NCBI GenBank assembly: GCA_905178155.1
Contig: CAJINV010000001.1
Span: forward strand, 15,004,142 to 15,068,141
DNA from: Amoebophrya sp. A120
Lineage: Eukaryota; Protista; Dinoflagellata
Length of the DNA: 64,000 bases
Reading direction: 5' to 3'
Part shown: piece by piece, positions 6,918 to 59,000 of the stretch
Position numbering within the stretch: position 1 is the stretch's first letter
Layout of the letters: every line of letters starts with the position of its first letter
Notes under the pieces: model-generated
What the model was told of the DNA's origin: nothing
Database searches by the model: none
The model's input: only the letters and a program-made list of their open reading frames with translations
Program-made: the position numbers and the translations under genes

Positions 6918-9900
6918 TCATTTTCCGTCGTCAAAAAAGGCCATGACTTCTTCACTGGGACTGCGTGCGACTAGAGCAGCATATCAACTGTAAAAATGTC
7001 TGGGTCTGGAAGAATCCATGTGTGTCATGCTTGTCTGTCATGACTCTTAAATCTGTCATGCACGTTACCCAAGAGCTCCGCTTTTCTGTGATGCAGAAGC
7101 GCAGTTTGTCATGCAGAATAGGCAACACCTAGGAGCTCAGAAACTTGTCATGCTGAGCCAGCATCTGTAGCCTCATCATGAGACGCCACCCAGCATCACA
7201 AGTTTCCAGACCCAGACATTTTTACTCTCGATACAGCAGACCCTACCGCAAGCTTCGAGAGCGCCGCTTCCGGGGCTGATACGAGCTCCGCGTGGGCCAT
7301 GGGGCTCGCCTCGGTCGATGAGCCGGTGCTGCTGTGCCCCTCCTGCACAGGACTCAGCCCCGGCGGAAACTTCATCCCGCCGCGGTTGGTAGAAGTGGTG
7401 GATGCTGCAACTGCCTGCTGCTGCGGAGGCAGCGGCAGTTCGTTGTCGTCGGAACTCGTCACGGGCGCGGGCGATGTGGTAATCGTGGTGGACGTAGCAG
7501 CAGCTGCTGCGACGTCTTTCGCTCGCTGCATCTCGGCATCGTAGTTCCGAACGAACCGACCGATCGGACTGTCCTCGTTACTGGGGTTTACTCGCGGGCT
7601 CTCCGCAAGATGTTGTTGACCCGGGGTAGTTGAAATAGTACCTCCCGGAAGACTTTGCTGGTGCAAGTAGTCGTTGATTTTGTAGTAATTGTAGTCGTAC
7701 TCGTACGGCATGTAAGGATGATATGCCGCTGCAAAACCACTCCAGTCGTGCTCCGGCAGCTTGTGGCCATGCCAGGAAATGTCCGCGTCACTGCTGCGAC
7801 CGGAACGGTGGGACGGCCGCGGCATCGACCGCGAATCATACCCAGATACGTGAGATGTGGACGGTCGGTTATAATACCGCTCTGAATTTTTTTTTTTCCA
7901 AAAATCGTTGATACTTCTTTCTTAGTGGTGTATTTTTCAAATCTACCGTTATCTATTCGCTACTCTATCCTTGAGCTGCCGAAAATTCTACGGACGGAAA
8001 GCTACATCAATCGGATGTTGAAATCGTTCATTCATTGATTACCCCTAAGTAATATGACCAAGTGTCGATCAGCAGTTGTGTATAGAAAAAGCAAAAACTT
8101 TGTGCTGTTGCATCAAAAAAAACAAAAACCTGCAGCGCTCGAGGGTGGATGCGAGGACTTTGTGCGGTTCAAAAAGAGGTCCGGGTCGTACTGCAGCTGC
8201 GAATGCGCCGCCTGCACCGGGTAGTGGTGATGCGTGTAGGAGCGAAACATATCTGCTTGGATTGCGGCCGCCTTGTGGCTGTTGGTCCGGGACAGCGAGT
8301 TTTTCGATGACGTTTTGGGCATCATGTTATACGGAGGCAGATTGTACTGTCCGAAGTTCCGCGCTTCCTCCGCTCCGTCCGGCCAGGAACTGGTGTAGCT
8401 CTCGGAACGGACCGGCGTGAAGGAAAAGTCCGCCTCGAGGCCCGACGGCCGACTTCCGGCGCCAAGCTGAGGACTCTCGAAGGTATGTACGGCGGACACG
8501 GACCGCGGCAAGTACTGCCCGGCGGCGGTTGAACTCTGCTCTGCATACACTGCTGCTGTTGAGGCAGCAATAGGATCGTTGCTCACCTCCTGCTCGTCCC
8601 CGAAGACTTTCCCGTACCCACTTCCCAGCAACAAAGTGGAGCCCAGCGACGAGCTGGGACCGTGGAAGGTCAGGCTGCGGTTCAACGCGGCCAAATGTTT
8701 GTCCCGCGCCAAAGCCAGCGCCGAAGTCGTTCGCAGCTTCCGGTCGTCGGTGCTCTGCGTTCGTTCCGGGAGCCCATGGATCACCGGCCCGTGGCTCGTC
8801 GTGCTAGTGGAAATGTCTTGGTCTTCCTCTAACCGGAGGTTAGCAACCGCAGCTGCGTCCCCCGGCAGCGGTGCGGCGACACTCATTGGCGATATCTCAG
8901 ACCCCGAAGAGAGCGCCGAGCCGGGAAGCAGGAATTCCGGCGTCGTGTGGATCGGCGGCAGGTTGTAGGGATTCAGGTTTTGCAGCGGGTGGGTGGGCAG
9001 CACCACGGGATAGGCGCCGGTCGCGGTCGCGCCGCCCGCGGTATAATTACCATGTGGTCGGGGTGCTTCCCCGCCACCGATCTGCGATCCGCGAGCCAAC
9101 GAGACACGATCTGCAAGCGTGGGTGGTCGCGGAGGGGGGAGCGGAGAAAGCTGCGAAAACGCCAGGTCCACCTGAAAGTCAAAAGTTGAAGTTTTTCATA
9201 TTGATGTTGTACAACTCTTTTTAACCACGAAATAACTATAGTACCGACATGAACTTACGCACCAAACTCGTGTTCAGGCTAAATCGTACACTCGTCGCGA
9301 CATCTGTCAGACCTAGAAGTGCCCTGATACCACATCACAAAAAAGAACTCCAGAACAACAATGACAGTGACACCATACTATAATGGACTAAAACGGACAT
9401 AATCGTCCCTGCAAACCTTACCAATACTATCCGTTATATCCTTCTATTATACCTGCGGACTCTCCACCACCTCTTCGTCGGAAGCATTTTCCTCGTCTGT
9501 TTCTTCCACCTCGTGCAGAATCCGCCCCTTCCCGGCGCCCTTATAGAACGGAGCAGGTGAAGCGGCACTTTGGTATGACTGATTGAACCCTGCAGATGGA
9601 GAACCGTGAAGATGTTGCTGGTGACCTCCCTGATGTTGTTCTCGTTCTCCACCGTGGTTGTTGTACAACCCTTGTGGGGCGGATTTGGGCGGGGTTTTCT
9701 CGACGACGGAGTACGTCATAGAGTGCGAAAACAAGACGGAGTTGGTTTCGTACGACACCTCCCGCACGCCCCATTTATGGAATTGGAATTCGTCATGGCC
9801 GTCGCCCTCAGGCGACACCGTCAGCCGCATCTCCTCCGCAGCAAAGTCGTACGACAGTGTTCCCGTGATGCGTGCCTCCCGCAATTGCTGCGCAAGCAGC

Positions 9901-12900
9901 TGGACTGCCTCTGAGAGCGGCTCTCGTTCAACATTTTTCGGGTCCATTCCCTCTTGGCCGGCGAGAATTTGCTCCAGGCTTGGGTCCTCCGGGTGGCTCA
10001 TGTGATTATCATAATTTTCGTAGTTGTTGTAGCGCGGCGTTGTAGCGGCGCTGCTTTCCGCAGAGGTCCCGCCCCCGAGGTGGTTATGATCCTTATCGCT
10101 GAGCCCCAACAGCTGCCCCTTGGCCATCTTGATCCCTCGCGGGGCGGTGGACTGCGAGAAGTAGGCTTTTAACACCGCCCGGAGGATCTGTGGTGAGCCG
10201 CAGTGCAGCTGGTACCGGCGGTGGATGCACCGCTCCCGCGAGGGCAGGGCCTGGTAGGTACTGAGAATTTTCCGCTGGATCTCCGGCGATTCGCAGATGA
10301 TGATGGCGTACCGTGCCGTTTTCGGGTTGCGCGGGTTCTTGTTCCGGGCCGTCTGTTTCGGCTGGATGAACTCCCAGCCCGCGCGCACCTGGTCGTGCAG
10401 CGGTCGCAGAATCGTGTGAATCATCCGGTCGTCCTATCCTGAGTAAAAACGTACCCACACCAGAGTCAAGATGGGGAATCGGCTAGACAAATCCACAAGT
10501 TTTGGCTGTTTTGCATGACAGATTTGGATTCGTAGTATAGTGCTGTTTGAGCTAGCTCAGCAGCATCACAGATCTAGCATAATATGCTGATTGGAGCATG
10601 ACAAATTGCAAAACACGACTAGAAAATGCTTCTCATGGAGCTCCGCATGAGAAACATTTTCAGCATGCAGATTTGCATTACAACTCTGGTGTGGGTACGT
10701 TTTTACTCAGGATACGTCCAACCGGTGCGGCAGGTTCTTCACCATCAGCGCCGGCGCGGAATTGAACAGGTCATTACGGATCCGCGCAAAGGTATCCAGG
10801 AAAAAAAGTGTGTTAGTGTAGGTGTCTTGAGGTGACAGCATGACAAAGGTGTTCTGCATGATAGAAAAAGCCTGTCATGCGCAGCTAGTAAGTGAAAACA
10901 ACAATGAAATAGGACTTCATGGTTGGCTAGCATGACAAATGTAACAGTGTTGCACGCTTTGCATCACAGACTTACACTTACACAGTTTTTTTCTTGCATA
11001 AAAGGCCTTGCGGGCAAAATGCGTGCGCGACTCCGGCGTCTCCTGGGCCTCCGTCAACGGACTGTAGTTCCCTGGCTCTTCACGCAGCAGCTCTGTGGTT
11101 TCAGATAGAAGGTCAGGCTAGATTAGAATCAATTACAATTTCACAATGTGGTACAATTTTCATGCATTATTCTATTGACCGTCGCGAAGACGCTGCACAC
11201 TAGTACACAGTGATCTTTCATTTCTTCGCGTGACCTACTTCTAGTATCCGCCCGGCATGATCTATCAGTCTCGTCGTGCTAGCAAAAAAAAGTGATTTTG
11301 TGATGCGAAGATTTCGGTCGCATCAATCAAGCTCAACTGTACTACTAGAACTATCGGCATCTTCGGCATGCATGCATGCATGCATGACAAAAATCGATAG
11401 ATGTACCCTTCTCCGGTGACTCGCACCAATTGGACACCCAATGCACCTGCTGGTGCTTTTTCTTCTCGACGTCTTTCCCAGTTGCGGCGGTCGACAATTC
11501 GTCGGAGTACGAGAAATTCCCGCTAAGTCTGTGTAATTTGTGAATGAGTACAATAATTTTCGTCGCTTGGCCGCTTACGCATCAAATGCAAAACCGGTCG
11601 CTACCTCGGACAAAAATGACGAAGCTCGGTCATGATCTTCTTGTTCTGATTAATTTTGTTTTTTCTATGAGATAAGAAAGTGCCACCAGTCCTGTGAGTC
11701 AGAAAAACATAGATAAGTACTGGTCCAGCATGAGGCTAAGTTGCGGCATGCGGTTGTCGCTGTGCTGCAGCTGCTCCAAATGCAGCACGTGCTTGATGTT
11801 GGGGTCGAAAGCCACCCCCTGATCCCGGACAAACTGCGTCGCCAACAAAAGGAAGGGATCATCCTGCTCGACTTTGAACACCTCATTGGCCGCCGCGTCA
11901 TCATGATTTTCCCCTGTTTTTTGTTCGTCCTCGTCGTCAGAACCGTCGTTCCCGGCCGACGCAGCACCCTTCCGCAGTTTGGTGGTCGAGACCAGGTAGC
12001 GGTTCTGCTCGAACTGGGGCGCCATAGTGACGTTTTTCGCGTCCGTGACAAACTCCTCCCGCTCGCGCATTGTGCGAGGGTGGCCGGTCTGCACCTTATT
12101 CCGCCCACCCGCTCCGAGCCCGAGGGGCGGGGAGGAGTGATGTTGATGTTGTTCTTGCGGAAAGAACCCTCCACCCTTCTTGCTCCCGTAAGAAGTTTTT
12201 CCGCCCGCATAATGACTAGAAGCTGCACTCGTCGTCCCTTTATACGGCTGCTGGTGCTGATGTTTCCCCCCGCCCTTCATCTTTCCGCCTGCTTTGCCCC
12301 CTTTGTTCATCTTTCCACCGGCTTTGTCAAAAGTCTGGACGGGAGAGGACGACAATGACTGATCACCCATCGCATGTTGAAAATGATCTTCCCCATACGT
12401 GTTTGCGAAAGGATTGTAACCTTTATTACCGCCCTTGTACTTCCCCTTCTTCCCGCCTCGAGCCGCCCCCTTGTTTTTACCGAATTGCTGCTGGTAATGA
12501 TCACCCGGGAAATTATAAACTTGGTCGTCGTGGTGACCTCGGAAGGCAAGCGATCGCCGAGGGGATGCGTTGGGGCTAGCGAACTGCTGATGATACTGCG
12601 ACGCCTCATTGTAATGGTCGTCAGCATCCTCATCCGACTCGGCTGCTGCCGGCGGGGGGCTATGAAAAGTCTGCTGGCTTTGCTGCTGAAGCAGTTCCAA
12701 GTTCTGCTGAATTTGCTGCTGCAGCAGATACTGCTGGACCAGTTGCTGCTGCTGCTGCTGCATGGCCGCAGCGCCTCCTATCACGGGAACGGGCGGGTAC
12801 TGGGGGCCCGCGGGATGGTGCTGGTACATCAACGGAGCTTGTTGTTGACCATGAGGCGGAGCGAACGCAGGAGCCGCACCTGCCGCTCCAGGCTGGTGGT

Positions 12901-13084
12901 GCATCTGAAAATTCTGCGGATTGTACCCTGGAGGGGCAGGCGGAGCAGTACCCGCTTGCATCTGCATTGCGAAGGCGTTCAGTTGCTGTTGCTGCTGAAG
13001 ACTTAGGTTGCGCAGCTGCTGCAGCTGCTCCTGTTGCAGGTCGACGCCTGAATGGGCGTGCTCACCACCTCCTTGGGGCATCAT
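6918..13084 (-). CDS. 8-exon Q/G/S-rich protein with a possible RRM-like segment (LMVKNLPHRLD)
   Basis: Hand-joined in frame: exons 13084-11721, 11528-11407, 11092-11001, 10787-10715, 10429-9453, 9171-8130, 7881-7234 and 6976-6918. Four GT-AG introns plus three TIR elements link ORFs 11699..13084, 9447..10424, 8113..9171 and 7196..7825. Ends ...SPSEEVMAFFDDGK*. Confidence 0.75.
6982..7233. mobile_element. introner element, TIR family A (252 bp), TSD CAGCA
   Basis: Left TATCAACTGTAAAAATGTCTGGGTCTGGAA, right TTCCAGACCCAGACATTTTTACTCTCGATA. CAGCA at 6977-6981 and 7234-7238. Removal gives ...VGSAALVARSP... in frame. Confidence 0.93.
10435..10714. mobile_element. introner element, TIR family B (280 bp), TSD CGTCC
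   Basis: Perfect 32-bp TIR TATCCTGAGTAAAAACGTACCCACACCAGAGT. CGTCC at 10430-10434 and 10715-10719. Removal gives ...PHRLDDRMIH... in frame. Sense-strand boundaries GT...AG. Confidence 0.95.
10793..11000. mobile_element. introner element, TIR family D (208 bp), TSD AAAGG
   Basis: Imperfect ~29-bp TIR: TATCCAGGAAAAAAAGTGTGTTAGTGTAG vs reverse complement TATGCAAGAAAAAAACTGTGTAAGTGTAA. AAAGG at 10788-10792 and 11001-11005. Removal gives ...FARKAFARIRNDL... in frame. No GT or AG at the boundaries. Confidence 0.9.
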
Positions 13085-16301: not shown

Positions 16302-18445
16302 TCAGTTGTAGGTGTAAGTAGACCCTGCTGCCGTCGTGTTAATGGAGTCCTCCTGTAGAAATATTACGGTTTAAGCTCTTCATGTTCTTCAAATTTGTTT
16401 AAGTACATCTTTCATACGTCTTCGATCATCTTTTCATTTTTCTTTTTGACCAATGGAGTAAAAACAAAGACTATTTCAAAACTTAGCTAGTACCGTGGCC
16501 CGGCGGGGCAGGAAACTGTCGTCCTGGGGCAAGACGAAGGGAATACTACTGAAGGGGTCCTGACCTTCCGCTGCGGCTGGCGGCGCCACAAACCCCGGGG
16601 GAAAGGCCTGAAACAACAGGTTAGCCGCTGCTGCCGCTGGATTTTCGATGTATAAATATTGTCATACTCGTCCGGCAACAAAAATACGCTGATACTCAAC
16701 ATATTGAAACATTTTTTTTTGCAACATTTCTTATTCTTTCACACTTTCAAGTGCAAGAACAAATGCAAGCGAACAAATCGAAAAAAACATAATCCATACG
16801 TGGCAATGGCTGGTGCGGCAGAAACATGCCTAAGTTCTGCGGAAACGCCTGCTGTGCCACGGCGTACATGTTGGGATGCGCGAAGCCGAATGCTGCCGCC
16901 GGCTCGTATTGAGAGGAAAAATCCCCCCTCCCCATATCGAAATGGAAATCTGTGATGCGGGATTTCCGTACACAAAGCGGCTCTGTCTTGCAGTAGAGGA
17001 CTGCAGGTAGATACAATGCCGGAAAAGGGGCGTTTTGGTGTAGGCACCTAGCAAGGCAGGCATCTCCTCCGTACGCCCTACAGCATTAAATTTTTGCCTA
17101 CAGGACGCGCCGAGGTTTTTGGATTTGCCTTCTTGCAATACAGAGACGATTTGTGGTCTCAAATCAGCATCACAAATTTTCAGAAGTATCTCGGTTTGGT
17201 ATGGGGAGGGGGGATTTTTCCTCACAATAGCTCGAATCCGGTCATCGGTGGCATACCCGTGTAGTCCCACAACGGGGCCTGCGGGGGAAATTATCGATTG
17301 CAAATATTCGAGTCTGGAGTGGGAAAATTGCCAAGTCTGACTCTTGTGTTGAATATGCGTCTGCTCGTACGATTTTTTACATCCGAACTACATCGTGTGT
17401 ACGAATTTTTACATCCGAACTACGTCTGCCGAACGGCAAGAAAAAGATTTTTTTGCAATTCTCCAGAACCAGAACTCATATTTGCATCGCATATTGCGGG
17501 CACCCCGGCAATCTGCGGTGGCGCGGGGACGGCAGCTGTTTTTATATTAGAAAGAGAGGAAGCGTATCAGTATCTTTCGCACAACATCCAGAATACTTTC
17601 TCAACGTCAGGACACAGTATGAAACGTAAAGAAATCCGATGGTGCAACAAATCGCCTCCAACTATGTATAGTATCATCGACCAGTACGGATCATGTTCCC
17701 ATTCCCCGCTTGCTTTCCTTTTCCCTTCTGCGGCAGCGGTGCCGGTGGGACCATGTTGTCACTGGAAGCTGTCGTGTCCTTACTCGCCGCGTTGTAGGCA
17801 TGAAAGGATCCCAGGGATTTCTGTGGTTTGATAGAAAGGTCCAAATTGCAGCTTGAAATTTCTGCCACGTGCGAGCGGTCTCTGGCAACTTGGAGGTCGA
17901 TCAGCATCAAAACGAACAAAACAACCATCATGGATTCTCCTTCTCGTCCTACGAAACAAAAAACAACGCAGCAGTGAAAAAGAAGCAGCAAGGACGATAA
18001 AAAACACCGCTACCCCCGCCACAATGGCCAACTCCTGCGCGAGCACCATGGGATTCATCGTACCACAAATCCTGCAGGCCTGATTCCGTCGGAATTGCAA
18101 GTCTTCGCAGGTGGGACAAATCCAGTCCCCGGGCACGTACTTGTACACCGACTTGGGCTGCTGCGGCTTAGACGGTGGTGCGGGGGCGGGTTGCTGTTGT
18201 TCGCTCGGTTGGCTATTGTTGTTGCCCCCGCCACTGGCGGTGGTACCCGCTCCGCTGCTGGCATTAGTACTTACGGTGTTTCGGCCGTGCTGGTGCGGCC
18301 CGTGGTGGTGCTGGTGCTGGTGGTGGCCGTACCAATTCGCCTTGCTGTTGTACCAATTATTGTAGTTGTGGTAGTAACCCGGCTTGCTGGCCCCCTTTCC
18401 CGCTCCCTGGTGTTGGTGTGTGTGATTCGGACCCGCAGACTGCAT
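16302..18445 (-). CDS. multi-exon RanBP2-type zinc-finger (putative RNA-binding) protein
   Basis: GDWICPTCEDLQFRRNQACRICG in exon 1. Downstream exons join in frame (KSLGSFHAY..., PAVPAPPQIAG, APLWDYTGMPPMTGFE|PAAAFGF..., AAAANLLFQAF..., EDSINTTAAGSTYTYN*). The 3' end is uncertain; an alternative stop lies at 16476. Confidence 0.7.
16907..17229. mobile_element. introner element, TIR family E (323 bp), TSD GCTCG
   Basis: 30-bp TIR TATTG(A/T)GAGGAAAAATCCCCCCTCCCCATA with 1 mismatch. GCTCG at 16902-16906 and 17230-17234. Removal gives ...MTGFEPAAAF... in frame. Non-canonical boundaries. Confidence 0.93.
17292..17493. mobile_element. degenerate introner remnant inside an intron (TSD lost)
   Basis: TATCGATTGCAAATATTCGAGTCTGG vs reverse complement of the right end TATGCGATGCAAATATGAGTTCTGG. 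TAT...ATA ends. Internal direct repeat TTTTTACATCCGAACTAC x2. No matching 5-bp TSD. Confidence 0.6.
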
Positions 18446-19471: not shown

Positions 19472-22400
19472 CTATCTTTTTCGTTTCCGACTCATGTAGC
19501 GTTCCACGAGAATCTTCTTGCATAGTTCCGTCTATGGAAGCGTCAGGTTTGAAATCGACAAAGTTGAAATGATTTGTCATGGATAAAATGGATACCAGTT
19601 GGCAGACCAAATTCCAAGCGGCGCATGACAAATTTTCGGAGCACCGGAATCCAATTTGTCATGCTGTTTGGGCACAGAGGACTGCTTTTGTCATGCAGCT
19701 TTAGCAGCTCTATCCCAAACCCTAAATAGGCTCACAATCTGCCTCACTTGCCACCCCGGCAAGACAGGCACTTCATGCCTTGCATTCTATGCATGACAAG
19801 TCTTCATTTCAACTTTGACGATTTCAATCCTGATAGATCCATACCGTCCATGCGAGCCGTAGTTCGTCGTCCTCTTTTTTGTTCCTCCTGGCTTGCTATC
19901 AACTGTAAAAATGTCTGGGTCTGGAAGAATGCGCGATTTTTCATGCTGCTTTTCCATGACCCATGAGGTCTGGAATGCAGGACCTAGCATGATAGATTCT
20001 GCGAGACCTTTCCAATGCCTATCCTCCATGAGAAACTACCTCCCGACTTGGTCAAAACTGGACGACTTTTGGTAATCATGCAACACAGATTTTTGCATGC
20101 TGCAGATTTAGCATGACAAGTTGCATTCTTCCAGACCCAGACATTTTTCCATTTGATACTTGCCGAGTTTTCTCCAGCGCCTCTGCCTCCCTCCAGACCT
20201 GTATCGCGTGCCTCGCGCACAGCAGCACACCCGTGAAGAGGCGCTGCGCCTTGTTGGTGTTCGCGTCTTTTGTCCATCCGGACGCCGCTTCGATGTAATC
20301 AAATTCGTGCTTGCGGCACACTTCCTTTGCCAAAGCCCGCGGTACCCACGCACAGTTTCGCGCAATGTCGTTGGACCACAGAATCTTTACGTCGACGCCT
20401 GAAGGCTGTTCATTGGAAGTAGTAGTGCATTTCCTGCTACTCTTGCCCAGCACACCATGTTGGTCCTCTATTCCCGGCTTCGTCGTACTGTTCGACTTCG
20501 TCTCGACGGGAATAGGTTTCCCGGAGTCCAAAAACCGTGGCTGCTGCGTTGCAGCGCCAAAGGACGACCCGAAAGACGACAATTTTCCGAATGACGCAGT
20601 GCCAAAGCCGCCGCCGCCAAATGAGCTTGACGAACTTGTAATGAACCCCAAAGAGGAAGAGGAGGAGAAACCCGCAGCGGCCGCCGGAGCTGCAAACGAC
20701 GCTGCAAACTGGCTTTTGCTACAGTTTTTCACGGTCTGGGGAGCGGCCTGCTGCAGCTCGGATTTGGAATTCCCATTGATGTCTTGTTCATCTTGCGCAA
20801 CGTCTCCGTGTACCCAGATTTTTTCCTCCTGCTGCAGTGAAAAAATGACCACGCTGTCGATCGTATCTGGTCGTATAGAAGCCGTTTTCGAAGTAGAACT
20901 GCTACTAGCCGATGCCCCTCGCAACAAGCCCTGTGAGGATGTGTATAATTGCTGTGTTTTCGACAAGGAGTGTTTCTCGAGAAAATTGTCCAGCGCGCAG
21001 TCCCAGTGTCCGTACTTGTTCCGCACTGAGAGCAAGTCGGTCGAGGCCAGCTTCCGGTCGACCGCGTTGTTGTACCGCATTTCCTTGGTCAAAGCCACCA
21101 TGTTCGCATGCAAGTCGTACACCGGGCGGTCCTCCGTTTGCCAAACCGCGAACAGAATCTCGCTGCCGCCGACCAGGGGCGTCTTCCGCTCCACCCCCTT
21201 CTCGCCCATCAGGACTCGACGGCCCCGCTTGCGCCACTCGTCTGCGGTGCGCAGGGGGTACACGTCGGTGCGGGAGTAGATCTTTTCTCTGCCCTTGAAC
21301 AACCCTTGCATCTTCGCGCTCGGGTGCAGCTTGTGCTGCTTGTTGTGCGCAAATTCCGCGCTCAGGCAGTAGACCAGCGAGTTCTTAAATTCCTCCTTGG
21401 TGCGGGGAAACGCATCCTTCACCTTCAGCTTTGTCCGCCGCAGCTCCAGCCACCACCGTTTCAGCGCGAGGGGCAGGTTGGAAAGCCTGATCTTATCGTG
21501 AAACTGGTGTCGCTTGTCCCAGCCGATCGTGTAGGTAAACTTCTTGAAGGGTGCGGTGTTTGGGTCCAGCGTTATTTGCACGCCGAGGGCGCTATTGTGT
21601 GGGGTGCAGCAGTACTGTTTCACACTTGTATTGTTCGTTCCATTTTTAGTACTAACCAAAAGCCTGTTGCTTGTCACCGGGTCGTCCTGTGCAGCTCCTG
21701 TGGTCGCCCCCACGGTGTCTTGCGTCGCAATATCCACAAAGGACGAAAAATACCCCCAGGGCTCTGTTTCCGTGCCGAGTGAGAAAAGGAAGCGGTCCGG
21801 CGTGAAACTGTTATGATATCCACTAGCGGAGCTGTGCTGCATAACACCTTTCTTGCTCTTCATTTTGCTTGCCACAGAGGAATTGTTCACCTTCCCCAAA
21901 TGAAGACTAGTGCAGCTCCCCGTAGTTGCTACTAGATTTCTGGCGAAAACCTTCCGTGCGTTTCGGGCCGTTTTCTCCTGCCTCTCTGCATCTTTCGCTT
22001 CCGCAATGGCCTCGTCAGAGAACAGTTGCTCGTGGTGGATCCGAACCTGCAATGCCTTGAACCCGGGAACTGTGGAGGCCGCCCAGAGAATCGGGGCCTT
22101 CTTCGCATAGAACCGCTGGTAGGCAAGTTGCAGAATGAAGAACGACGTCGGGGTTTTCAGCTGCAGCACTTCAAAGACGGAGGAACAGGGGGCGATATCC
22201 GCCACACATCCCTCGAACATCTCACGCTCTTCCGAGGATGAGAAAAACGCACGGATATCCTGCAAGATCACGTCACGTTCGAGTGCTGACGAATGCTGCT
22301 CTAAGCCATTTCTCGTCTTGTCGGCTGCCTCGACGTCCCGACCGGCATTTTTCGACGCCACCATCTCAGAAGAGCTGGCGGTAGGAACAGCCTTTATTTT

Positions 22401-25700: not shown

Positions 25701-25910
25701 AAAAACGCGACTGCGGCAAAAAACATTTTTTTTTGTATTTTTTCCAGACCATTTACTCCTCAGGATAACCATCGTAATCCAGCCTAGTAGAACCCCGGCT
25801 ACTTTGTATTTCTCTTGAGCGTTGTCGAGGTGCATGTGCTAATTTCTAATCTCGTTCATGTTTGGTCACACAAAATCAAAAACCTTGGAGAAAGCAAAAA
25901 ACTGCATCGA

Positions 25911-28900
25911 TACCAAATGCTCGCCTGCCTCATTTGCTTGCGAAATGGGCGTGTTGTCTTCTAGTGTTTCTGTTTGTTCGGCATCCTCCGAAGCAGACGC
26001 CAAATTCTCCTCCTGGTCTGCATCGACGGTTGGTGGTGCAACCTCTGCCGCGGTGGTCGCGGGCCGCGCGGTCGCTTGCTCTGTGCCTTGCGGCGAGGGT
26101 GCCGGTGTTGGCACTCTGGCAAGCACCGCTTCCGCCTGCGCGATGAGGTGCGGATTGGAGCACGGCCCTGAGAAGTGAGTGTGAGACTTGGTGGAACTAT
26201 AATTCCTACATAGTTTGCTTTGAGTGACCTCATCTTGTTAATCCGTGGTGCGATCGAAGAGCAGCCTTACCTACTGTATGTAATTGACGCGTAGATCTAC
26301 CGTACGAGAGGTGGATAAGACATCAGACATCAGGACGCCAGACGTAAAAGTCTTATACGGAGTTCTTTCACTACCTTTGTCCAGACATTTGCGGATGTTC
26401 GCCGAGTTTTCGTCTTTCACAGCTTTTGCAAGTTCCAGCACTTTCTTTGCCTTGTCCAGCTCTTCTTTCTCTACCGCGGTGCGCTCCGCCATTAAGATCG
26501 CGGTTTGCAAGGCGATAATGTGCACATTCTCCTGCTGCATGCTGTATCTTAAGGACTCTACCGCCTCGAACCGGCGTAGCTTTTTCTTGTAGTTGGTTTT
26601 CCGGTCTTCCGGAATCTCCGTGAGAACGGCTTCCGGCAGCGATTGCATGGTCTGCAGCGACTTCCGGAGCTGGTCCGGGTCCTGCTGCTTGCACGAATCC
26701 CGGAGAGACGCCAGCACGGACCCCACCGCTTGTTTGTCCTCCCCCTGCACACCGTTCAGAATCCGGGCGTCCTCAGCGTCCGCACGCACTACAGACGAGG
26801 CGTGACTGAAGGACCGCCCGCCCATGGAAGGAATAGACTGCTGCAGCACATCCACCGCAGCTTGCTTATCTCTTTCAGTTGCAGCTGCAATCTCCTCCTG
26901 GGAAGCTGGAAGCACTTCCGCTGCTGTAACTTCGACTACACCTCCTCTGGGAGCGCCGGCGGGTGAAGCAGCAGCAGCATCATCTCGCCCAGGAGACGAC
27001 GCGTCCGGACTGCTGAAGCTCGCGCTGTCCTCCTCATCTACTCGTACTTCTCGAGCAGCGGCGTTTTGTTCCCCCGGAGAACGCAACAGAGGAACATGCT
27101 CCGTTGGAGACGACGGGAACGCAGCTCCCGGCGTGTTGATATCTTGCCGACTAGTCGTTTCATCTGCGCTGATTTTGCTCATACCGTTATTTTCTTTTTC
27201 TACTTTGTTCTCGATCGCATTTGCCTTGCTGTTGTTCTTGGCCCAGACCTCTGAAGCTGCGATGCTCTCCCCATCGGCAGCGGAGGAGCTCGATGTTTGT
27301 TCAGCAGTAGCAGACGGCTGGCCGCCTGAGGGACGACCTCCTCCGGCCTCATCCGATTGGCTGCTTTGCTGCTGTTGATTCTCTTCCTCCGAAGTGGTGG
27401 CACTCGATGAGGAAGAGGAAGCTTGGTCTGCAGCTTCTACTTCGGCAGATGGACCACCTTCAGGTTTCTTCACACCTGCACCTAGGACCACGTCCTGTAC
27501 CTGCATCTCCTGTGCATCGGCCTATCCTGTGCAAATGTGCCTAGGGGGTAGGGTAAACAAAAAAAATGTTATGAAGAAGGTGCAAAAAAGCCGGTGTTGA
27601 TGTTGGTGGTGAAGTTGGTGGCGAAGGTGGTGCCGAAGCTGGTGCCGAAGCTGGTGCCGAAGCTGGTGCCGAAGCTGGTGCCGAAGCTGGTGCCGAAGGT
27701 AAGAACAAGACTCCTCCTCATCTACCTGCTCGAAGCTATTATACGTCTACTAAGAAGCGCAAGGGTCCTTATAATTAAGACTAGATAGCATGCTGATGAT
27801 CTAGCTAATTAAATTACTATAGTCACTATCGATTTCTTTTACGTAGCGATAGGTCAGCGCGATCTACTAATAGAATTATCTGCAGCATTTCCAGCATTAT
27901 TTCGATGACAGATCTGAGAACCGACCTCCTTGATAGCTGCTGGATGTCATTGCTGCAGTGCCAGCTACAGCTGCAAATAATAGCAAAAGAAGAGATCATC
28001 CACGCGCCAAGTGCTTCACTATCTTCGTTCCGGGCACCACCTGGTGCCCGAAACGAGGATAGTGAAGAACTGGGCGTGTGGATGATCTCTTCTTCATGCC
28101 CGAAATAATGGCGCGTCTTCTTGTTCTTCTACTTCTTGTTTTGCACTACAACTGCATTCGGAATTTTATTGAGCTAGATCACAGGTGGCTGGAGTCTATC
28201 TCTGCCTATATGCTACTGACGACCCTTGCGCTTCTATTCATTCTAGATCGTGCGCGCCAGCAGAAAGTGTAGTTGTAGCAATAGGAGCAGCTGACGCACC
28301 TACTAAATATAAAGAACGTAGCTACTAGTCTCACCGACAATAAGTTTGCGGACCGATATAATAGGTAGTAGCTACATACAAAGGCCTTCGTCCGATAGCT
28401 AGCTCCCTAGCTAGTTGGCTAGCTAGCAGCCCGTCGGTCTGCTTAAATAAATAAGTGACTGCTCTTCTTGGTCTGGTAGTGTGTTGTATTTAGCATCATC
28501 GTCGTTTATCGTTATCCTACAGGTGTAGTTGGCTTATACTTTAATCAAAAAAAGCAGCTGCAGCGGCCGTCAGCATGATCGTGATCAGCGTCAACTTCGC
28601 GACCTCCGCGTGCTAGTCGCGGCCGGGCGTTCGAGCGTTTTGTGCAGCAATTGCAGGTGGGCTCCTCGCACCAGCACCAGAAGTCACGACCTCCTGATGC
28701 ATCCGCGTGATCGTCTTCATCCGCGTGACCGTCGACGTCAAAAAGTGCGACACGAGTGTCGCGAAAGTCGTGTCAAAAAGTGCAACATAACGCACACATT
28801 CGGAGTGCGCAAATGCGCACTATTTTTCGCAACACAAATGTCAGAAATGCAAAAAAAGCTGTATTTTTATCAGCCTAAGAATTTTGGATTTTCCTACCCC

Positions 28901-31900
28901 CTAGGCACATTTGCACAGGATACGGCCGCTGACGGTACAACTCCTCTTGCGCCGCCGACGGTCATTGCTGCACCACGAGGACCAAGAAGACCTTTATTTC
29001 CACCAACTTTCCACCTCGGGGTGATAGAGATAGACTCCTTCTTTATGCGTTCCAGGTCCGCGTCCAGCACTTGCATCGACCGCGGAAGACTCTCGTACTT
29101 CCGGGTCGCGGCTTCCAGCCCCGCCCTGTCATTGGGATCGCGTTGGGCCAGAAAGAGAATCACCTGCTCGAGGGTAGACCGTGGGGAGGAAAGCGGTTCT
29201 TGGTCCTGGTCTTCTACCGCTTGGTAGGGCACGGCCTCGAGGTCATGCGGAGGCGAATCGGGGCTGTCGGTGAGTCCTAGGTCATCCGCGATGACGTCCC
29301 GAGGACGAGGACCACCCGGAAGATCCTTATCCGCGGCGATGAAGTCCCGACCCACAGAAGCGGGCGTCGTTGGCTTGGGCGGGCTGACAGCAACTTCTAT
29401 TTCGGGCTTGTCGACGACGTCCTGCGTAGTTGCGCTAGTAGACCCGACCAGAACTTCTTGCTTCGCTCCGACCGATGCGGCGCGTGCGGCTCGAGCGGAT
29501 GCCTGCGCGACGGGGGAAAGGTCGAAGAGGCTTCCGTCGGAAACGAGACTGCCACCCATGCCAGGAGAGGACCCTGACGGGCCTATTGGTGGCCCTTGCA
29601 ATCTTGCCTGCTCCTCCTCTGTGTCTGCAGAAACGTCTGCCTTCTCAAAAGGCGCAACCGCAGGAGCGGAAGCCCGACTAGAGTGCTGCAGCTGTTCTGC
29701 CGCGGACGGGGCGGCCGGCGGTCCGCCTGCGTCTACAGCATCCGGGGGTGGCACCGCTGCGTCCTCTTCGTCGGATTTCGCCATCGCAGCAAAGCGCTGC
29801 TGCTCTTCGGCAGCCGCGGCTGCTTCCAGTCGTTCCTGCTCCAATTCCGCGATCGAAAGTTCGCAGGCATCCAACAGGGTCGCCAGCTTCACTTTTCCTT
29901 CGGCAAAAACCGGAACCCGTTGATCCGAAGGCGGTATACCGAGAAGCGCATCCACTTCGCTGTTCTCTGGACTGCTCCCGTGTTCGTGGTTTACAGCATG
30001 AAGAGCACCGCCGTCTTCTAGCCCAAGCTGGGCCGCCATTTTCCGGTACTCTCCCAGCGCCCTTGCGTGCTTCAGCAAAACCTCTCGGGACACAATATTT
30101 CCATTCTGCAGGTCTAGTTCTCTCTTTGTCGCTTCCACGGAACTGAGCAGGTGCGCACAGGACTCCTCGTGTTTGCGAAGAAAATTATTCGCAACAAGTA
30201 AATCGACCGGCTTCAACTTCTGGCTTGCAATCAGTGCTGTGACCAACGACGCATCCTGTGTCGCCATAGCGTTTTCCAGCCTGCGCATTACCTGCTGGTC
30301 CAGATTTTTTGTCTGTTTAGCGACCTTTTCCTTCTCCAGGAAGCTCTTCGCGCGCTCCATATCTTCAACAGCAAGACCGATGGCCAGACTGCTTTGCGAA
30401 GAAAGCGTATGTTTGTCTGCTGGTGAGGACGCAGCAACAGAAGTTTTCTTTGCGCCAGCATCACGATTGGCCTCGTTGTTCGCATTCTCTTCTATCTGGT
30501 CCACCAGCGCCTGTACACGCGCACTGTCTCCGCGCAGCATCAAAGAGACAAAGTTGATTTTCTGCCGGAGTAAAACGACCGCGTCTTTGGCTTCCAGCAG
30601 GAGCGGATGGTCGGTTTGCTCCAGTACACCCCATGCTTCTTCTGACTGCGGTGACAGCAGATGCCCGTGCAGGTTTTCGAAGTTGCTCGTAGTGTTACTG
30701 CTCCCGCTCCGGAACAAGTCTTCTTCTAGCATTGCCTGGTGCTGGCCTTCTTGCAACTTCTTACTCTCTGCACCAATGGGTGAAGACCGCGCAGTGTCGA
30801 GCAAATTCATGCTGCTCATCAAGTCCATGACTTCCCCCGGAGAAGGCGCCTTGCTGCTGTTCTCATTTTCCCCATCGCTTGCATTCTCCTGATCCAAAGA
30901 AAACATCCTCTCGTCCTCATCTATCTGCAATTCCCCTGGCCCAGCGAGCGCCCCTGTCGAGGGGACATCTACATCACGAGGACCCTTATTCATCATTTTG
31001 CCCTTCAACCCTGGCCGCGTTGCGACTTTTGGCCCTTCGGCCACCTCCGGAAGGTCAAAATTCTCGCTGTCCGAGCGGAAGAACCTTGTCTCGTTGCACA
31101 AAACCACTTGTCGCTCAAGTCGGTGTAGAATCTTCTCCAACTCTTTTGCGTCGTTCGTTTTCGATTTGTCCCGCACGTCTTGGAGGATCGCCGTCAAGCT
31201 CAGTGTGTGCTTGGCATAACTAGCCAGTTGTGCCTCCGTGTCGATGACCTTTTGCAACAGAGCCTGCTCCGCTTGCCGTACAGTTTTTTCTTCCTCCAAG
31301 GACTTCTCCGATCCCGCGGACGATGAAACACTGCGCTGCAAACTTGCCGTCCCCTCGATGGGGCTGAAGGGGGTTCCCCCTGCTGGTGATCCTGCAGAAG
31401 TTGTTCCACCACCCATAGCTGCGAGATTTGACCCCGATGCGGAGTTGCGGTTGAGTGTCCGTCGGAGGTCGCGCAAGTACGTGCGCAAATCCTGCAACTT
31501 TTCGTTTTCCAACTTCGTGAACGCGTCGGCTCGTTCGTTAGACGTGTTTGGCGGCCTACTTCTGCTAGTAGAAGAACTTGCGCTCATTCCTGCGGCCCCG
31601 AGCTTGGACGTTGTGCCTGCAAGCTCCAGGCTACGAGCCTGGTAGAGCTTCCGCACGGCGCCGAAGTCCTTCAGTTTCTGACTGGTCTCTTCCCGCTTTT
31701 TGATCGCAAAAATGTGGCGCAGTCCGCGGTCACAAAACGCCACGACTTCCGGCGCCACGTTCTTCTCCGCCTTGGTTTTCTCCAGAAGTATTTCGTCCTG
31801 CGAAGCGATGTCCTTCACATACTTCACTTTGAGCGCGCGGCTCGTCGCTGTCAACACGGCACTCAGGTGCTCCGCCTCAACCCGCGACTCGATGGAAAAG

Positions 31901-52705: not shown

Positions 52706-55392
52706 TCACGGTTTTTTATCTGCGAAAGCAGACAAGTCCACGTTACCCATGGTCTCGTCCTGTTCCTCGTCTGAGTCTTCCTCGTCGTCATCCCTTTCGT
52801 ATGGATTGCAAAAATGTCTGGGTCTGGAAGATTGCAACTTGTCATGCTAAAGCCGAATCATGCAAAAATCTGTGTTGCACGACTGCCAAAAGCTGTCCAC
52901 TTTCGACCAAGTTGGGAGGGAGTTTCTCATGCAGGATAGGCATGGCAGAGACCTCACAGACTCTGTCATGCTAGGTCCCGCATGCCAGACCTCATGGGTC
53001 ATGGAAAACCTGCATGACAAGTTTACACTCTTCCAGACCCAGACATTTTTGCAATCCATATTTCGGCGTCGGAGGCAACGTCGCGTTCCAGAATTTCGTC
53101 GTCACCGCCTTCCTGCACCTCGGGTTTGCTCTTCAGGACAAAAACGCCTGTGTTTGGTGATGAAGACAACAACATTTTTACTTATGTGGAGGTTTTTACA
53201 GATAAAATTCATGACGCGCCTTTGGGTGGAACAAACCAAGCTACTCTGGCACTTCATCTCGGGGGTGCGATGAAAAAATGAATGCAAATGCATGAACTTG
53301 GCCCCGTGGTGGAAAACAATAAATTAACCGTATGTATACCTCCCTTCTTTTCGATGGTTGATTTGATACGGTCCAGCGCAGCATCGATTTCTTGCATGCC
53401 GGCCTCCTTTCCCACCGATTGCGTGGTGACGTCGTAGTGTGGTGGAGCGACCACTTTGATGGCAATCTGCCCCATGGTTGACCCCTCTACTTTCGCTGCC
53501 TCGCCCTGATTATGGATTGCAAAAGTGTCTGGGTCTGGAAGGTTGGAACTTGTGATGCTAACTTTGGACTCTAAAAAATTTTGTATTGCATGACCAGCAA
53601 GGGGAGTCCGGTTTGTGCTACGCGTGCTGGAAGGCATTTGTCATGCGGAATAGGCATCAGGAAGGCCTCTGAAAATCTGTGATGGTAGGGCTGCCATGAC
53701 AGACATTCTGTGTCATGCAAAAACAGCATAACAAATTTCGGATTCTTCCAGACCCAGACATTTTTGCATTTGATACTGATCCAGTCCCGCGAGAAGGGCT
53801 TCCTTTACGGCATCAATGCTATGGATGTGTCAGAGTTGAAATCGACAAAGTTGAAAGAGTTTGTGATGCATAAAATGTAGCCCACAAATTTCCTGTCTTG
53901 CAGAGTAGGCAAGTGAGGCAGATTGTAAGCCTGTTGAGGTGTAGAAACTGAGCTGCTGAAGTTGCATGACAAAGGCAGTCTTCTGTGCCCAAACAGCATG
54001 ACAAATTGGATTCCGGTGCTCGGACAATTTGTCATGCGCCACTTGAAAACTAGGCGCCAACTGGTGCCCGTTTTACGCATCACAAATTATTTCAACTTTG
54101 ACGATTTCAAACCTGACGCTTCCATAAATGCCCTCGATTTCGTAGCAGTAGACCTGAAATTGGATAACTTTATAAAAACGATTCTACTACTTCTACCCCA
54201 ATCCCCATACTAGGATGTTGATCATCTACCGCAAAAACAAAAAAAATCGTTGCTGAAACTACAACAAGTTGTAGCTCTATTCACTATTCTATTACCTCGA
54301 TCTTTGCTTTGAGCTTGATGGCCTGCGGGGTCAGCTTCTTCTCGATGATCTGCAGCATGTTCTTGAAAACCTTTTCTGGGACATCCATGTCCCCAAAAAT
54401 GCCTTCATCTCTGGAGTTGATGTAGCTGTTGAATTTATTTGTGAATCTTCATGACATCGTGTAGAAAAATCCGCACGACACCTTGCCGATAGTTGTACCC
54501 ATCTGTCGCGAAGAGAATGCGAAGAAATTTATTATTTTGCACCGCGCAAAACGTCTTCCTGGTGAATCACTTGCAAGTTGCAGCCATCAACATCATCTGC
54601 CAACAAAAATCATCAGAAGTACTGTTTGAACGCGTCCACAGCGTGCGGGTACTTCTTGTACAGCGGCCATGCGATTTTCTGGCACAGCTCCTCGCACGGA
54701 ATCTGGTGCACGGCAGAAAGTTGTCGCATCGTGGAGTGGACCAACTTTGACTTGGTGTATCTCTGCAAGAAAGTTGCTCGGTCGTCGGCATTCACACGTC
54801 TTCGGCTCATATCCAAGTGACCTGAGTAAATTTGTAGAATTTGTTTGAAATACTCCATGCAAAAAAACGCGGCTGTTAGACAAAGGAAGTTGTGCATTCA
54901 GCTTCCTAGGAGGTGAGTTAGTACTTCTCATAACGTCGTGAAATATTAAAATATTCAACCTAATACCTCTTTCCTTGTCCACACGGAGCACCAAGCAGAC
55001 GCAAAATTGTCCGACCCGAATCTCCTTCAACATGGATCGAATTCGCCTTGTGCTGACTTCGGAAAACAGGATCATACCCTCCAGACCTGTTGTTGATGGT
55101 AATAGAAGAAAACTTTTTCAACAAATGTCCGCAGAAATTTCCGATAGCAAGAAGATTATATGTGCATTATTTCACTGTCCAATCATGCCGATCCAATGTC
55201 GGAAAAAAACCGCGGACCTGAGTATTCCAGACACTGCACGTAGGCGGACGTTTCTGCGACGCGAAGCACTTTCACCATCACCAGCTCGTTTACATTCGGC
55301 ACGTCATTTTCGTAGAACCTGGGTTCTTTGTTCCGCTTGAACATATTCCGCTCCTCATCCGGAATCTCGTCAGCGCCCGGAAGAACCACCAT
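52706..55392 (-). CDS. EIF2S1: translation initiation factor eIF2 alpha subunit (9 exons; 3 introns are TIR elements)
   Basis: Motifs RFYEND.P..NELVMVKV, EGMILFSEVSTRRIRS, GHLDMSRRRV, IAWPLYKKY, LTPQAIKLKAKIE|VYCYEIEGI|DAVKEALLAG and VVAPPHY, plus an acidic tail ending AFADKKP* (52706). Confidence 0.95.
52800..53060. mobile_element. introner element, TIR family A, inverted copy (261 bp), TSD TTTCG
   Basis: Perfect 32-bp TIR TATGGATTGCAAAAATGTCTGGGTCTGGAAGA. TTTCG at 52795-52799 and 53061-53065. The interior is the reverse complement of the 19897 and 57255 copies. Removal gives SDAERDDDEED. Confidence 0.96.
53511..53775. mobile_element. introner element, TIR family A (265 bp), TSD CTGAT
   Basis: Left TATGGATTGCAAAAGTGTCTGGGTCTGGAAG, right CTTCCAGACCCAGACATTTTTGCATTTGATA. 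CTGAT at 53506-53510 and 53776-53780. Removal gives AGLDQGEAAK; retention hits an in-frame stop. Confidence 0.95.
53820..54126. mobile_element. introner element, TIR family C (307 bp), TSD AATGC
   Basis: TIR TATGGA....TCAG..TTGAAATCG.CAAAGTTGAAA. AATGC at 53815-53819 and 54127-54131. Splits the conserved EGI|DAVK motif of eIF2-alpha; retention hits an in-frame stop. Confidence 0.96.
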
Positions 55393-56014
55393 TTTCGGAA
55401 AACTGTGTTTGCCAGATGAAATAAACGGTGTCTATGCAGTAAAAAGGTAAGTGCGAAGGAGGAGGAAATCTAGCGAAGTTGTAGGAATAAATTGGACTAA
55501 TACTCTAATTTTGTGAAACTAGAACAACCAGCCAGTGCGTAAAAATACAGAGCCTGGATTGCGAATGCAAGATCAGATGCGAATTCAAGTGCTAAAACGG
55601 AACATCTGGGGATCGTTGTGCTGGTAGAGAAAAAAACTCAAACTACAGATCTGATTTACATTCGCGCAGAAAAAGGGAGCTGCCTCACGCGTCTGCAGCC
55701 GGAAAGTTGATCGCAATGTCCACAAGAAAGTAAAACTGGTGAGATCTTCGTCCCGCATAGGTGAATATTTGGGATTCGTTGAAAAAGCTGTCGCACTTTT
55801 AGATCTTTTTTCTACATCGAGCCATGGAACAAAGAAATGGGTAATCTCAGCAACGTAGAAGCAGCTGCGGAGCTTCTTTATTTTGAACAGCAAACAAAAC
55901 TGTGCAAGTTGCATATATTTTTTTATTTTTTTCGCGAAGTTTTACGTATATCGATCTCGATGTGCAAAAGTTCAAGTTGGGAAAAGAAAACAGAGCAGCT
56001 CAGCAAATGCAAAA

Positions 56015-59000
56015 TCACGCCGCCTCTTCGCCACTGAGAATGCTGAGCGCGTCTTTGAGACCATCGATCTCTTGCTCCCTGCGTTTTTTCGCCTCCTCCG
56101 CACTGGGTCCAGCGCAGGTCTGCTTCAGTTCCAGCGAGTAGTTTTCCACGTAGCTCAGCTCTTTCAGCTTCTCCTCCCGGTCGGTGTTGAGGTTATTCAA
56201 CAAGGTTTTTTGTTTCTCCATGCGTCGTTGCAAAAACAGGTTGCTTTTCTCCAGCTCCGCCTTCGCAAGCTTCTGCGTGGCGACAAACTGGTCAAACAGA
56301 GCCCGGTCGCGCAAATCTGCCCCACGGACCACGAACAGCTTCAGCATCTGGTTCTCGGCGACTTTCTCCACCAGCGCCAGCGCCCGCCGCCAGCTGTCGA
56401 CGGTGACCGGGCTGATGCGCAGACCAATCGACTGGTCGGATTCTTGGTTTTCCTCCTCCCGCTCGAGGTTCTGTTCTTCTTCCCGAACCTCGTCTTCAAT
56501 TTTCTCATTGACCGCTTTTCGCGACAGTGCCGTCGCTGCGGCGAAAGATGTTGACGTGGTTGATTGCTGCGCTTGTTGGAGAAAGCTCGTGAAAGAGGAT
56601 GTCAGTGTGTTTTGCATTGTTGCTCCTCGTACAGATGAACGTTGGTTCGTGATAATGCTCTTCGCCGCGTTGTTTCCGAACTGCACCAGCCTATTGGACG
56701 ACTCGAGCATTCTCTCGAGATCGTGCGACAAGTCTGGCGGCGCAGCGATGGTGTTCAGCATCGGGAGCTGAGCGAGGGGGACAAGTTCAAACGACGGAGA
56801 GGTGGCACGAGGATCTACTACTGGTGTAAAAACTTCTGTCTGCGGCTGCGGCACTGGGGACAGGATTTGCTGTGGTAATGGCGCTGCCTGCTGCCCAACA
56901 ACAGCAGCGGTCAACGGCTGTACCGGGAGTACAACCGACGAAACAGGCGGCAAACTGCGACCACGCTCCGCTTGCACATTCTCGGCTGCTAGGCCAGCGC
57001 TTTGCGCGATCGCTGGAGCGGATACTACACCAGCCGCAGTCGTAGGCACGACCTGCACACGCCCCTCTGATTTATTTGACACGCCGCCCCCCACTGCTTC
57101 AACCGGCGCAGCAAAGGTCGGCAGGAGATCATGCGGATTTGATGTTACTTCCTCTCCGTTGCCCTCCGCAGCTTTGACGTCTTCCAAGGAGAAGCCGACG
57201 TCCGCACTCCTTCCGCGCACGAAGTCCTCCGAGTCGAATTCGTCATTTTCCCTCTATCAAATGCAAAAGTGTCTGGATCTGGAAGAGTGCGCGATTTGTC
57301 ATGCAGCTTTTCCATGACCCATGAGGTCTGGAATGCAGAACCTAGCATGGCAGATTCTGCGCGATCTCTCTCATGCCTATCCTGCATGAGAAACTCCCTC
57401 CCGACTTGGTCAAAACTGGACGACTTTTGGTAATCATGCAACACAGATTTTTACATGCTTCAGATTTAGCATGACAAGTTGCATTCTTCCAGACCCAGAC
57501 ATTTTTACATTTGATACCCTCGCCTCTTTCGCAAAATGGATGTCCTCCAAAGTGTCCTCGTAGAGCTCCCGCAGCTTCTGCACGACCCTATCCAATTTCT
57601 GCAACTGCGTTTTCCCCGCGTGCAGCAACCCGTCGGAGATTTGCTTGTCATCCGCCCGGAGGTTGCTCGCGTCCTGCACGGCCACGTCGTACTTCGCCAT
57701 CTGATTTCGGTTGTCGTCTTGCGCCAGGCCGTTCTCCCGCAGCGTCTTGTCTACCACACTCATCTGTTGGTCGATGCCCGTCAGCGCCTTGCGGAGTTTT
57801 GACCGCTGCTTGCGGTTTTTCTCCGCCTCGGATTCACACATCGCCTTCTTGTCCTGCGCCGCAGCCATCTCCGTCCTCACCTTGCCGATCATATCCGTAA
57901 TCATGCGCCTCACCTTGTCGAACGGGCCGGCCGCGGTGGTCTGGGACAATAACGCCGCTTGCAGCAGGTCGAGTGGTTTAGCAGCGGCTTGCAATCGGTC
58001 GAAAGAGGGATCGACGCGGCCGCGTTCAGCTGTGTAGTTAAAGGATTCTTGTTCATCCGACTGCAGGGATGTAATGCTGTCTTGTTCACCAGCTTGTTGG
58101 TCATTCGTTTTCCTATTCCTTCCATCTGCGCCTGCCTGCAGGAGTGCGACAGACTTCGTTGTGCTGGTGTCTCCTGTCGTCTCATCGATTTGCTTCTGCA
58201 GCTGCTCCTCTTCTTGTGCGGGGGAGACGAGGTCATCTTCTACGGAAGTTGTGATCAACGACTGTGTCGTTGCAGCTTCGTTAGAAGGAAGACTTTGTCG
58301 ACTCAACGCATCCAGAGCCGCGTTTGCCATGTTGCGCAAGTTCTCAGCCTTCCTCCCGTGATGTTCATGCTTTTTTGCTCCTTCAGCTGTTGCACCAGCG
58401 GCAGTCGCCGTTTTCGACCCAAGTTGCAGAAAGAACGTCGGAGCAGCAGGTGGTGTTTTTTTTTCTGATTCTTGACTGTCACTGTTTCCAAGCTTCACAG
58501 TTGTAAACGGAATCGTGTCGGAAGTCATCACCGGCTTCTCTAGCGGTCCATTCACAACATTATCGACAATATCAAACGCCTTGTCCAAAAGCGCCGAATC
58601 CGTCAACAGAAACTTCTGCTTCTGCAACCGGTCAATGTCAGCGCTTGGGCTGGTGCTAATCGATGCTGGAGGGGGCGACTGCGCTCTTGTTTTGCTTTCG
58701 TCGAGTTTCGTTTCCCGCTTTGCGTTGTCTTTCGAATGATCTTCTACTTTGTGGTCGCCGTGCAGCAGCCACGGCATCACGTCGTGAGTGCTGAAATAGT
58801 CGTTGGTCTCGCTTTTCCTCCAGGGAAGAAGAGAATTGGACTTCTGCTGTTTTGTTGAAGAAGAAGATGACGCGGCCGCTGCAGCAACAGTGCTTGTTTC
58901 CGCTCCGTCTAGCTTACTCGTGCTGCTCGTCGTTTCCTCAGCGTTCTCCCGCATCAGCTTCATCTGTTCGTTGTCGTGCTGTTCCAGGGACAAAAATGAA

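Follow-up and report, generated by a model that had tools for sequence, protein, structure and literature searches.

Exact removal from RNA of inverted-repeat TAT...ATA elements lying in reading frames of the dinoflagellate Amoebophrya sp. A120

How can proteins be made from genes whose exons are interrupted by repeated elements that break the reading frame and offer no GT..AG pair of ends by which they might be spliced out? The question is raised by a stretch of 64,000 nucleotides of Amoebophrya sp. A120 (assembly GCA_905178155.1, contig CAJINV010000001.1, positions 15,004,142 to 15,068,141 of the forward strand), hereafter the window, in which eleven elements beginning with TAT and ending with ATA lie within open reading frames (ORFs), among them those of eIF2-alpha and of an XPC/Rad4-like protein. 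These elements are cut out of pre-mRNA exactly, without normal splice signals. They are likely non-autonomous DNA transposons residing in exons, each removed together with one copy of its 5-bp duplication. The removal is likely the work of a relaxed spliceosome, which would take the paired element ends as a ruler; taken as a whole, we hold this explanation to be somewhat better than an even chance.

A scan of the window for the arrangement N5-TAT...ATA-N5, in which 14 or more of the 20 terminal bases had to match, returned exactly 11 elements (Table 1), all flanked by an exact 5-bp duplication, and none at the same threshold in each of 20 local dinucleotide-block shuffles. All eleven start with TAT, end with ATA and have 15-20 of 20 terminal bases paired; ten are 208-323 bp long and one is 1400 bp, and together they occupy 6.5% of the window. 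Inverted-repeat arms of 30-56 nt were seen in ten (among the 25 longest inverted repeats of the window listed), the predicted fold of the element at 52800 is a long closing stem (z -10.9), and an A-tract stands at position 11 in nine, both family B copies being without it. Grouping by BLAST gives six families, namely A (6982, 19897, 52800, 53511, 57255), B (19533, 53820) and four singletons, with copies inside the window up to 92% alike. That these are repeated families is also indicated by 12,376 matching pieces of DNA contigs, whose depth is heaped on the elements. Being short and non-coding, with terminal inverted repeats (TIRs) and a target-site duplication (TSD) of fixed length, the elements answer to the description of miniature inverted-repeat transposable elements (MITEs). 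A scan of the window against Rfam gave no matches. A first-pass annotation, made from the letters alone, had described these eleven starts, the TAT and ATA ends, the inverted repeats, the 5-bp TSDs and an A-tract near TIR position 11 in most elements, all of which were recovered. It had also proposed at least six unrelated families and a total of eleven; the six families stand, although they are not wholly unrelated (an internal motif is shared among families, below), and the total holds for intact elements but overlooked a degenerate twelfth copy at 17292-17493. The interior of the 1400-bp element, in which we found neither a long ORF nor a Pfam hit, contains a hairpin with 53-nt arms (27987-28094) and, at 27611-27698, a 12-bp unit repeated 7.3 times in tandem.

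Deletion of an element with one copy of its duplication yields a continuous frame in ten of the eleven cases. If retained, ten of the elements would introduce a stop into each of the three frames, and the eleventh shifts the frame. The restored eIF2-alpha, whose gene carries three elements, has 322 amino acids (aa; PDB match, E 5.8e-9), and the restored XPC/Rad4-like protein has 1090 aa, with Pfam matches to BHD_1 (E 7.7e-6) and BHD_3 (E 0.001) that both lie below the curated cut-off; the two hosts named at the first pass are thus supported by continuous frames. Further restored proteins measure 885, 341, 3262 and 1006 aa. The earlier statement that the frame resumes after every removal has to be tempered for the element at 6982, the weakest case, where the frame continues for only about 20 codons beyond the site, the RNA comparison did not cover the element, and a strand classifier (correct for nine of the eleven window elements, with a training set drawn partly from window ORFs) assigned the opposite strand.

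Contigs from sequencing runs were compared with two 20-kb stretches of the window, 44001-64000 and 9301-29300, the RNA evidence consisting throughout of contigs from complementary DNA (cDNA). In the former, contigs of RNA runs X3 and X4 skip 266, 270 and 312 nt within eIF2-alpha and 267 nt at 57255, in each instance the length of the element plus 5; in the latter, there are joints of 285 nt (X3) and of 328 and 1405 nt (X3, X5 and X6). Overall, removal of the element plus 5 nt was found in RNA for eight of the ten elements covered, the 1.4-kb copy included, while the joints for 19533 and 19897 are absent among those listed and RNA cover there is low. The contigs that skip elements also drop GT-AG introns and, because of this, must represent spliced RNA, in keeping with the removal from pre-mRNA that the first-pass annotation had put forward. 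A cut lying 1 nt outside each end, which would leave 3 extra nt behind, is excluded by the loss of length plus 5.

Where the cut falls is obscured in intact elements by the duplication itself, which leaves six compatible junction registers; unlike U2-type introns, none of the eleven window elements has GT..AG ends in any of them. The degenerate copy at 17292-17493 is more informative, for it preserves TAT-N7-AAA at both ends and 13 of 20 terminal matches, and its flanks are no longer duplicated. In all three RNA runs an unambiguous joint leads from 17287 to 17495, removing an intron of 207 nt; the contig coordinates around it sum exactly (334 nt), and canonical introns are dropped in the same contig. 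Read in the sense direction, this intron consists of 1 nt, the element and 4 nt, a register that we denote -1/+4. Since the copy is removed without duplicated flanks, its removal is independent of the direct repeat and still takes 5 extra nt, which suggests, from this single copy, that the paired ends of the element are likely the reference from which the cutting position is measured.

These joints bear on two other ways in which an element and one duplication might go missing. Precise excision from DNA, in some nuclei or at some stage, would cause exactly this loss, with RNA transcribed from empty templates as from ciliate genomes freed of their internal eliminated sequences, and removal from DNA had been entertained at the first pass. 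We regard it as highly improbable, and that part of the earlier proposal as unsupported: in DNA run X1 (the one DNA run of the organism compared, from whose contigs rare variants would drop out) depth is 0 for all three of the joined forms listed and contigs of the flanks continue into the element ends, and the copy lacking repeats is cut at -1/+4, away from the element edge. The joints might, on the other hand, be made in the test tube, the elements remaining in mRNA, as a hairpin with direct repeats is the classic setting for template switching by reverse transcriptase. All of the RNA evidence is indeed derived from cDNA, and all runs with cover come from one sample, possibly that underlying the study of Farhat et al. 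2021. Such an artefact is nevertheless extremely improbable, given that retention would break the frame in eleven of eleven cases, three of them in eIF2-alpha alone, and that the removal is no less exact for the copy without repeats, which is missing from a contig that has also lost canonical introns.

Table 1. Inverted-repeat TAT...ATA elements of the window and their removal from RNA
Feature	Position	Length	Remarks
Family A element	6982..7233	252 bp	Duplication CAGCA; near 3' end of minus-strand ORF
Family C element	10435..10714	280 bp	285 nt skipped in RNA (run X3 only)
Family D element	10793..11000	208 bp	213-nt removal inferred from X3 contig coordinates (165 unlisted nt = 92 + 73)
Family E element	16907..17229	323 bp	328 nt skipped, 3/3 RNA runs
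Degenerate twelfth element	17288..17494		Minus strand; TAT...ATA at 17292-17493; removed as 207-nt AT..TT intron
Family B element	19533..19843	311 bp	In XPC/Rad4-like gene; joint absent among RNA joints listed
Family A element	19897..20158	262 bp	In XPC/Rad4-like gene; joint absent among RNA joints listed
Family F element	27523..28922	1400 bp	1405 nt skipped, 3/3 RNA runs
Family A element	52800..53060	261 bp	In eIF2-alpha; 266 nt skipped in RNA
Family A element	53511..53775	265 bp	In eIF2-alpha; 270 nt skipped in RNA
Family B element	53820..54126	307 bp	In eIF2-alpha; 312 nt skipped in RNA
Family A element	57255..57516	262 bp	RNA contigs (X3, X4) pass from 57249 to 57517, 267 nt skipped

Further copies, which the first-pass annotation had proposed to look for, were found in a second assembly. 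The end pattern of family A matched at least 156 stretches of a metagenome collection, and 150 loci (L001-L150), all on contigs of one assembly, were analyzed; they amount to about 0.59 Mb including overlaps and have no flank in common with the window. As to empty sites in relatives, raw-read run X12 contributed only two reads to the comparison, and of the run X9 pieces listed the longest fall on elements. Among 966 end pairs in these loci, 271 represent distinct elements whose 5-bp duplication is exact and 635 are without duplication, the latter, in our own reading, largely mispairings between neighboring copies. Other longest duplications were of 4 bp in five pairs, 8 bp in one and 6 bp in none, and under reciprocal-best pairing all five flank positions match in 258 of 397 pairs and four of five in 52. 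Megablast shows relatives up to 97% like the window elements, with none in these loci for the element at 10793 or for the 1400-bp element at 27523. Insertions show a weak, almost absent, target preference. The same family A pattern had no matches in viral contigs or in GTDB genomes, and the family F end had none in viral contigs. Four longer copies (L020 505-1608, L054 3862-4492, L053 571-1051 and L026 6314-6770) contain foreign DNA in mid-element between intact 5-bp duplications, which suggests that the ends can carry cargo. Of 257 copies, 138 could be confidently oriented to the host frame; in 67 of these the first duplicated base is at codon position 3, corresponding to phase-0 introns under the -1/+4 register, a skew with p=0.0007 against an even distribution and p=0.019 with target preference modeled.

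That the -1/+4 register is general for the elements we consider fairly probable. Farhat et al. (PMC7789003, Table S4) give T at position 2 in all nine predominant non-canonical intron motifs of A120, which agrees with a donor of the form N-TAT and is thus in line with this register. The canonical introns of the host provide a second point of contact: among 18 RNA-supported introns of the window the donor is GTA in 17 and positions +4 to +8 are poorly conserved, so that TAT would supply the letters at +2 and +3. The acceptors of these 18 introns are A/C-rich and show no pyrimidine tract. Farhat et al. report U2, U4, U5, U6 and the majority of spliceosomal proteins as present and did not detect U1 (PMC7789003), a loss that such sparse donor and acceptor signals fit. 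The catalyst is rather more probably than otherwise the U2/U6 spliceosome, with N-TAT replacing the GTA donor of the host and an acceptor whose place depends on how far it lies from the stem. In the sequence of events that we envisage, a DDE transposase acting in trans would insert an element into an exon, making the 5-bp duplication, and the relaxed spliceosome would then measure from the paired ends and cut at -1/+4. As the ends are symmetric and 1 plus 4 equals the length of the duplication, the protein would be the same whichever way round an element is inserted.

A feature common to otherwise distinct families points to how they may have been mobilized. The ten short window elements contain 33 occurrences of the octamer TGTSATGC or its complement, as against five in the remaining 59.9 kb. 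Counting the second assembly, it is carried by 255 of 276 short elements and, in 14 of 15 families, by at least half of the members, at a density of 10.8 per kb inside elements versus 0.67 per kb outside, and shuffles give at most 0.2 per element. The first copy points inward, mostly 33-45 nt from each element end. Copies on the same strand are most often 31-32 nt apart, and their spacing has other maxima at 18 and 93. Because the 1.4-kb element and the degenerate copy, both of which are spliced, have no exact motif, it is unnecessary for splicing. Judging from sequence, TGTSATGC is a putative DNA-binding site of a common mobilizing protein and thereby offers a handle for finding that protein, although common ancestry alone could leave it in the families. 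We think it reasonably probable that all of the families were copied in trans by a DDE transposase of integrase-like type, which would read the TAT ends, the A-tract and the TGTSATGC repeats. A single transposase superfamily had been suggested at the first pass; it fits the termini that the elements have in common, the constant length of 5 bp of their duplications and the shared motif, but no transposase has come to light, and we keep it as a proposal. Separately, a canonical GT-AG intron of 314 nt (11093-11406) bears two exact TGTSATGC copies and, close to the 5' end, a run of CATG, and is possibly a decayed or nested element.

Several results, in addition to the single RNA sample, weigh against the explanation favored here. 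The -1/+4 register is known from one element, and two tests on 35 of 41 older second-assembly copies (five with fewer than two of five flank bases matching, and one with a single match, being set aside) do not single it out: mutation polarity is 20 versus 13 (p=0.30), and the junction coding score places another register first, with k=5 (+4.7, standard error (SE) 3.3) ahead of k=1 (+2.5, SE 2.6). Translations made for each register beside ORFs with Pfam matches did not decide between the registers either. Table S4 may itself be shaped by aligner conventions. In the 138 oriented copies there is no selection for a donor G (43 observed, 41.2 expected) and acceptor AG stands at 16 observed versus 11.5 expected (p=0.12, codon-position corrected), while GT..AG is available across all registers in just seven; this counts against a spliceosome, because a spliceosome might be expected to select such letters. 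Two leads also fell away with these copies, namely that insertion sites were selected for G before TAT, as in seven of the eleven window elements, and that AG was in excess at duplication positions 3-4, which is not significant once corrected for codon position.

The lack of GT/AG selection is what might be expected if a spliceosome-independent endonuclease and a ligase removed the elements from RNA at a position set by structure, as is suspected in euglenids, whose nonconventional introns, with TIRs and TSD-like repeats, leave as circles without lariats (PMC11282704). The strong closing hairpin, and a removal that works from 208 to 1400 nt and in both orientations, would suit such enzymes as well. 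We judge this alternative unlikely, though it deserves to be kept in view, since the one fixed junction (17288-17494) has T at +2 and A at +3 just as canonical host donors do, the inverted repeat/direct repeat (IR/DR) organization is reported also for 15% of canonical A120 introns (PMC7789003), and the non-canonical introns of Fritillaria are reported to be spliceosomal (PMC11282704).

Mobilization by a transposase also has results against it. Long copies with a DDE transposase ORF, proposed as a check at the first pass, did not appear: of 233 long ORFs in the second-assembly loci, themselves a small part of a genome, 145 were scanned and showed no transposase, none was found among the ORFs and Pfam matches of the 1.4-kb element, and long TAT...ATA spans in the loci proved to be short elements with inserted DNA or neighboring copies, with no transposase-like ORF by inspection. 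Farhat et al. likewise found no transposase in A120 and rejected general mobilization by transposases (PMC7789003), and Gozashti et al. 2025 assign A120 introners to several classes of transposable element (PMC12130899). The same removal from RNA could act on copies that spread through RNA, by retro-copying or reverse splicing, or that were moved by several enzymes unrelated to one another. A duplication of constant length (5 bp), the near absence of target preference, symmetric ends inserted in both orientations, and one motif common to 14 of 15 families make this improbable. Reverse splicing, moreover, would make no 5-bp duplication.

A bolder form of the explanation preferred here, which we offer tentatively and think rather doubtful, is that a spliceosome without U1 picks its sites geometrically, at -1/+4 of a paired TAT...ATA stem and with any flanking letters. 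Its ruler would be the 5-bp duplication of one undescribed integrase-like superfamily, whose families share a phased TGTSATGC code, and insertions would thus be born as scarless introns in either orientation. If a fixed -1/+4 rule is true, what looks like a chaos of splice motifs would reduce to a single geometric principle, tens of thousands of introns would have their annotation corrected, and it would be understood how transposons could fill exons cheaply.

The system has been published already as a class, and probably for this very lineage. Farhat et al. 2021 (PMC7789003) describe in A120 29,850 introner copies in 1954 families, with a TAT+7+AAA motif, direct repeats 3-5 nt long (given as 5 bp in the Fig. 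S19 legend), RNA-supported non-canonical junctions and a mean non-canonical intron of about 240 nt. By their signature we would assign the window elements to introners of this type: TAT, 7 nt and at least three A occur in nine of eleven (family B being without the A-tract), the 5-bp repeats of all eleven fall within the reported range, and the elements form repeated families removed at junctions other than GT-AG. The first-pass remark that the general class is not new was therefore right as to the class, but understated how much of the motif, the 5-bp repeats and the RNA support was known. Unlike that account, in which repeats are variable, the border position is left unknown (legend of Fig. 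3) and intron analysis is restricted to 40-1000 nt, the window presents uniform 5-bp repeats, a spliced 1.4-kb copy, one junction fixed at -1/+4 and the motif common to the families. The terms CATG, subterminal and internal motif gave no hit in the article text of Farhat et al., nor did CATG in the supplement text. Beyond the literature searched, which covers few subscription journals and in which no later paper on the splicing mechanism was found, the present additions are the candidate -1/+4 rule, independence from the repeat (one copy), the lack of GT/AG selection and the shared motif.

Comparison with other described systems places the elements near, and not within, known groups. Among the 41 of 58 A120 rows of Gozashti et al. 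covered here (PMC12130899), family 38 is a TIR DNA element with a 5-bp TSD, TA/TA termini and homology to integrases of the long terminal repeat (LTR) type, about 810 bp long with ORFs, and is stated to lack the termini and TSD of Ginger; unlike it, judged by description only, the window elements have no such ORF. With IS3EU and GingerRoot (PMC10045372, PMC6839031), which have an integrase-related DDE enzyme, they share TA..TA termini and weak target preference; the duplication of those groups is usually 6 bp, a length seen in none of our pairs, and GingerRoot TIRs measure 100-150 bp as against 30-56 bp here. We therefore refrain from placing the elements in IS3EU/GingerRoot. By analogy, the closest functional parallels appear to be the nonconventional introns of euglenids and the non-canonical introns of Fritillaria (PMC11282704), which are likewise closed by TIRs, flanked by TSDs, MITE-like and without GT-AG ends, but which show preferences at their borders (pyrimidine-purine; AG-AC/AT), whereas the flanking letters in the window are nearly free.

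Some minor features complete the description of these loci. Neighboring genes of the window, identified through Pfam, encode a Ras-family GTPase (40759-41166), a UEV-domain protein (51066-51665) and the OB fold of a DNA polymerase delta small subunit (62127-62582). An exon of 2563 codons on the minus strand (28894-36585), part of the 3262-aa spliced frame, contains neither an element nor a Pfam hit. In the second assembly, Erythromycin-esterase-family hits, which we take to be TIKI-like, adjoin an ORF with ubiquitin-conjugating and RING-variant domains (L068 2572-5801), possibly as a single fused gene.

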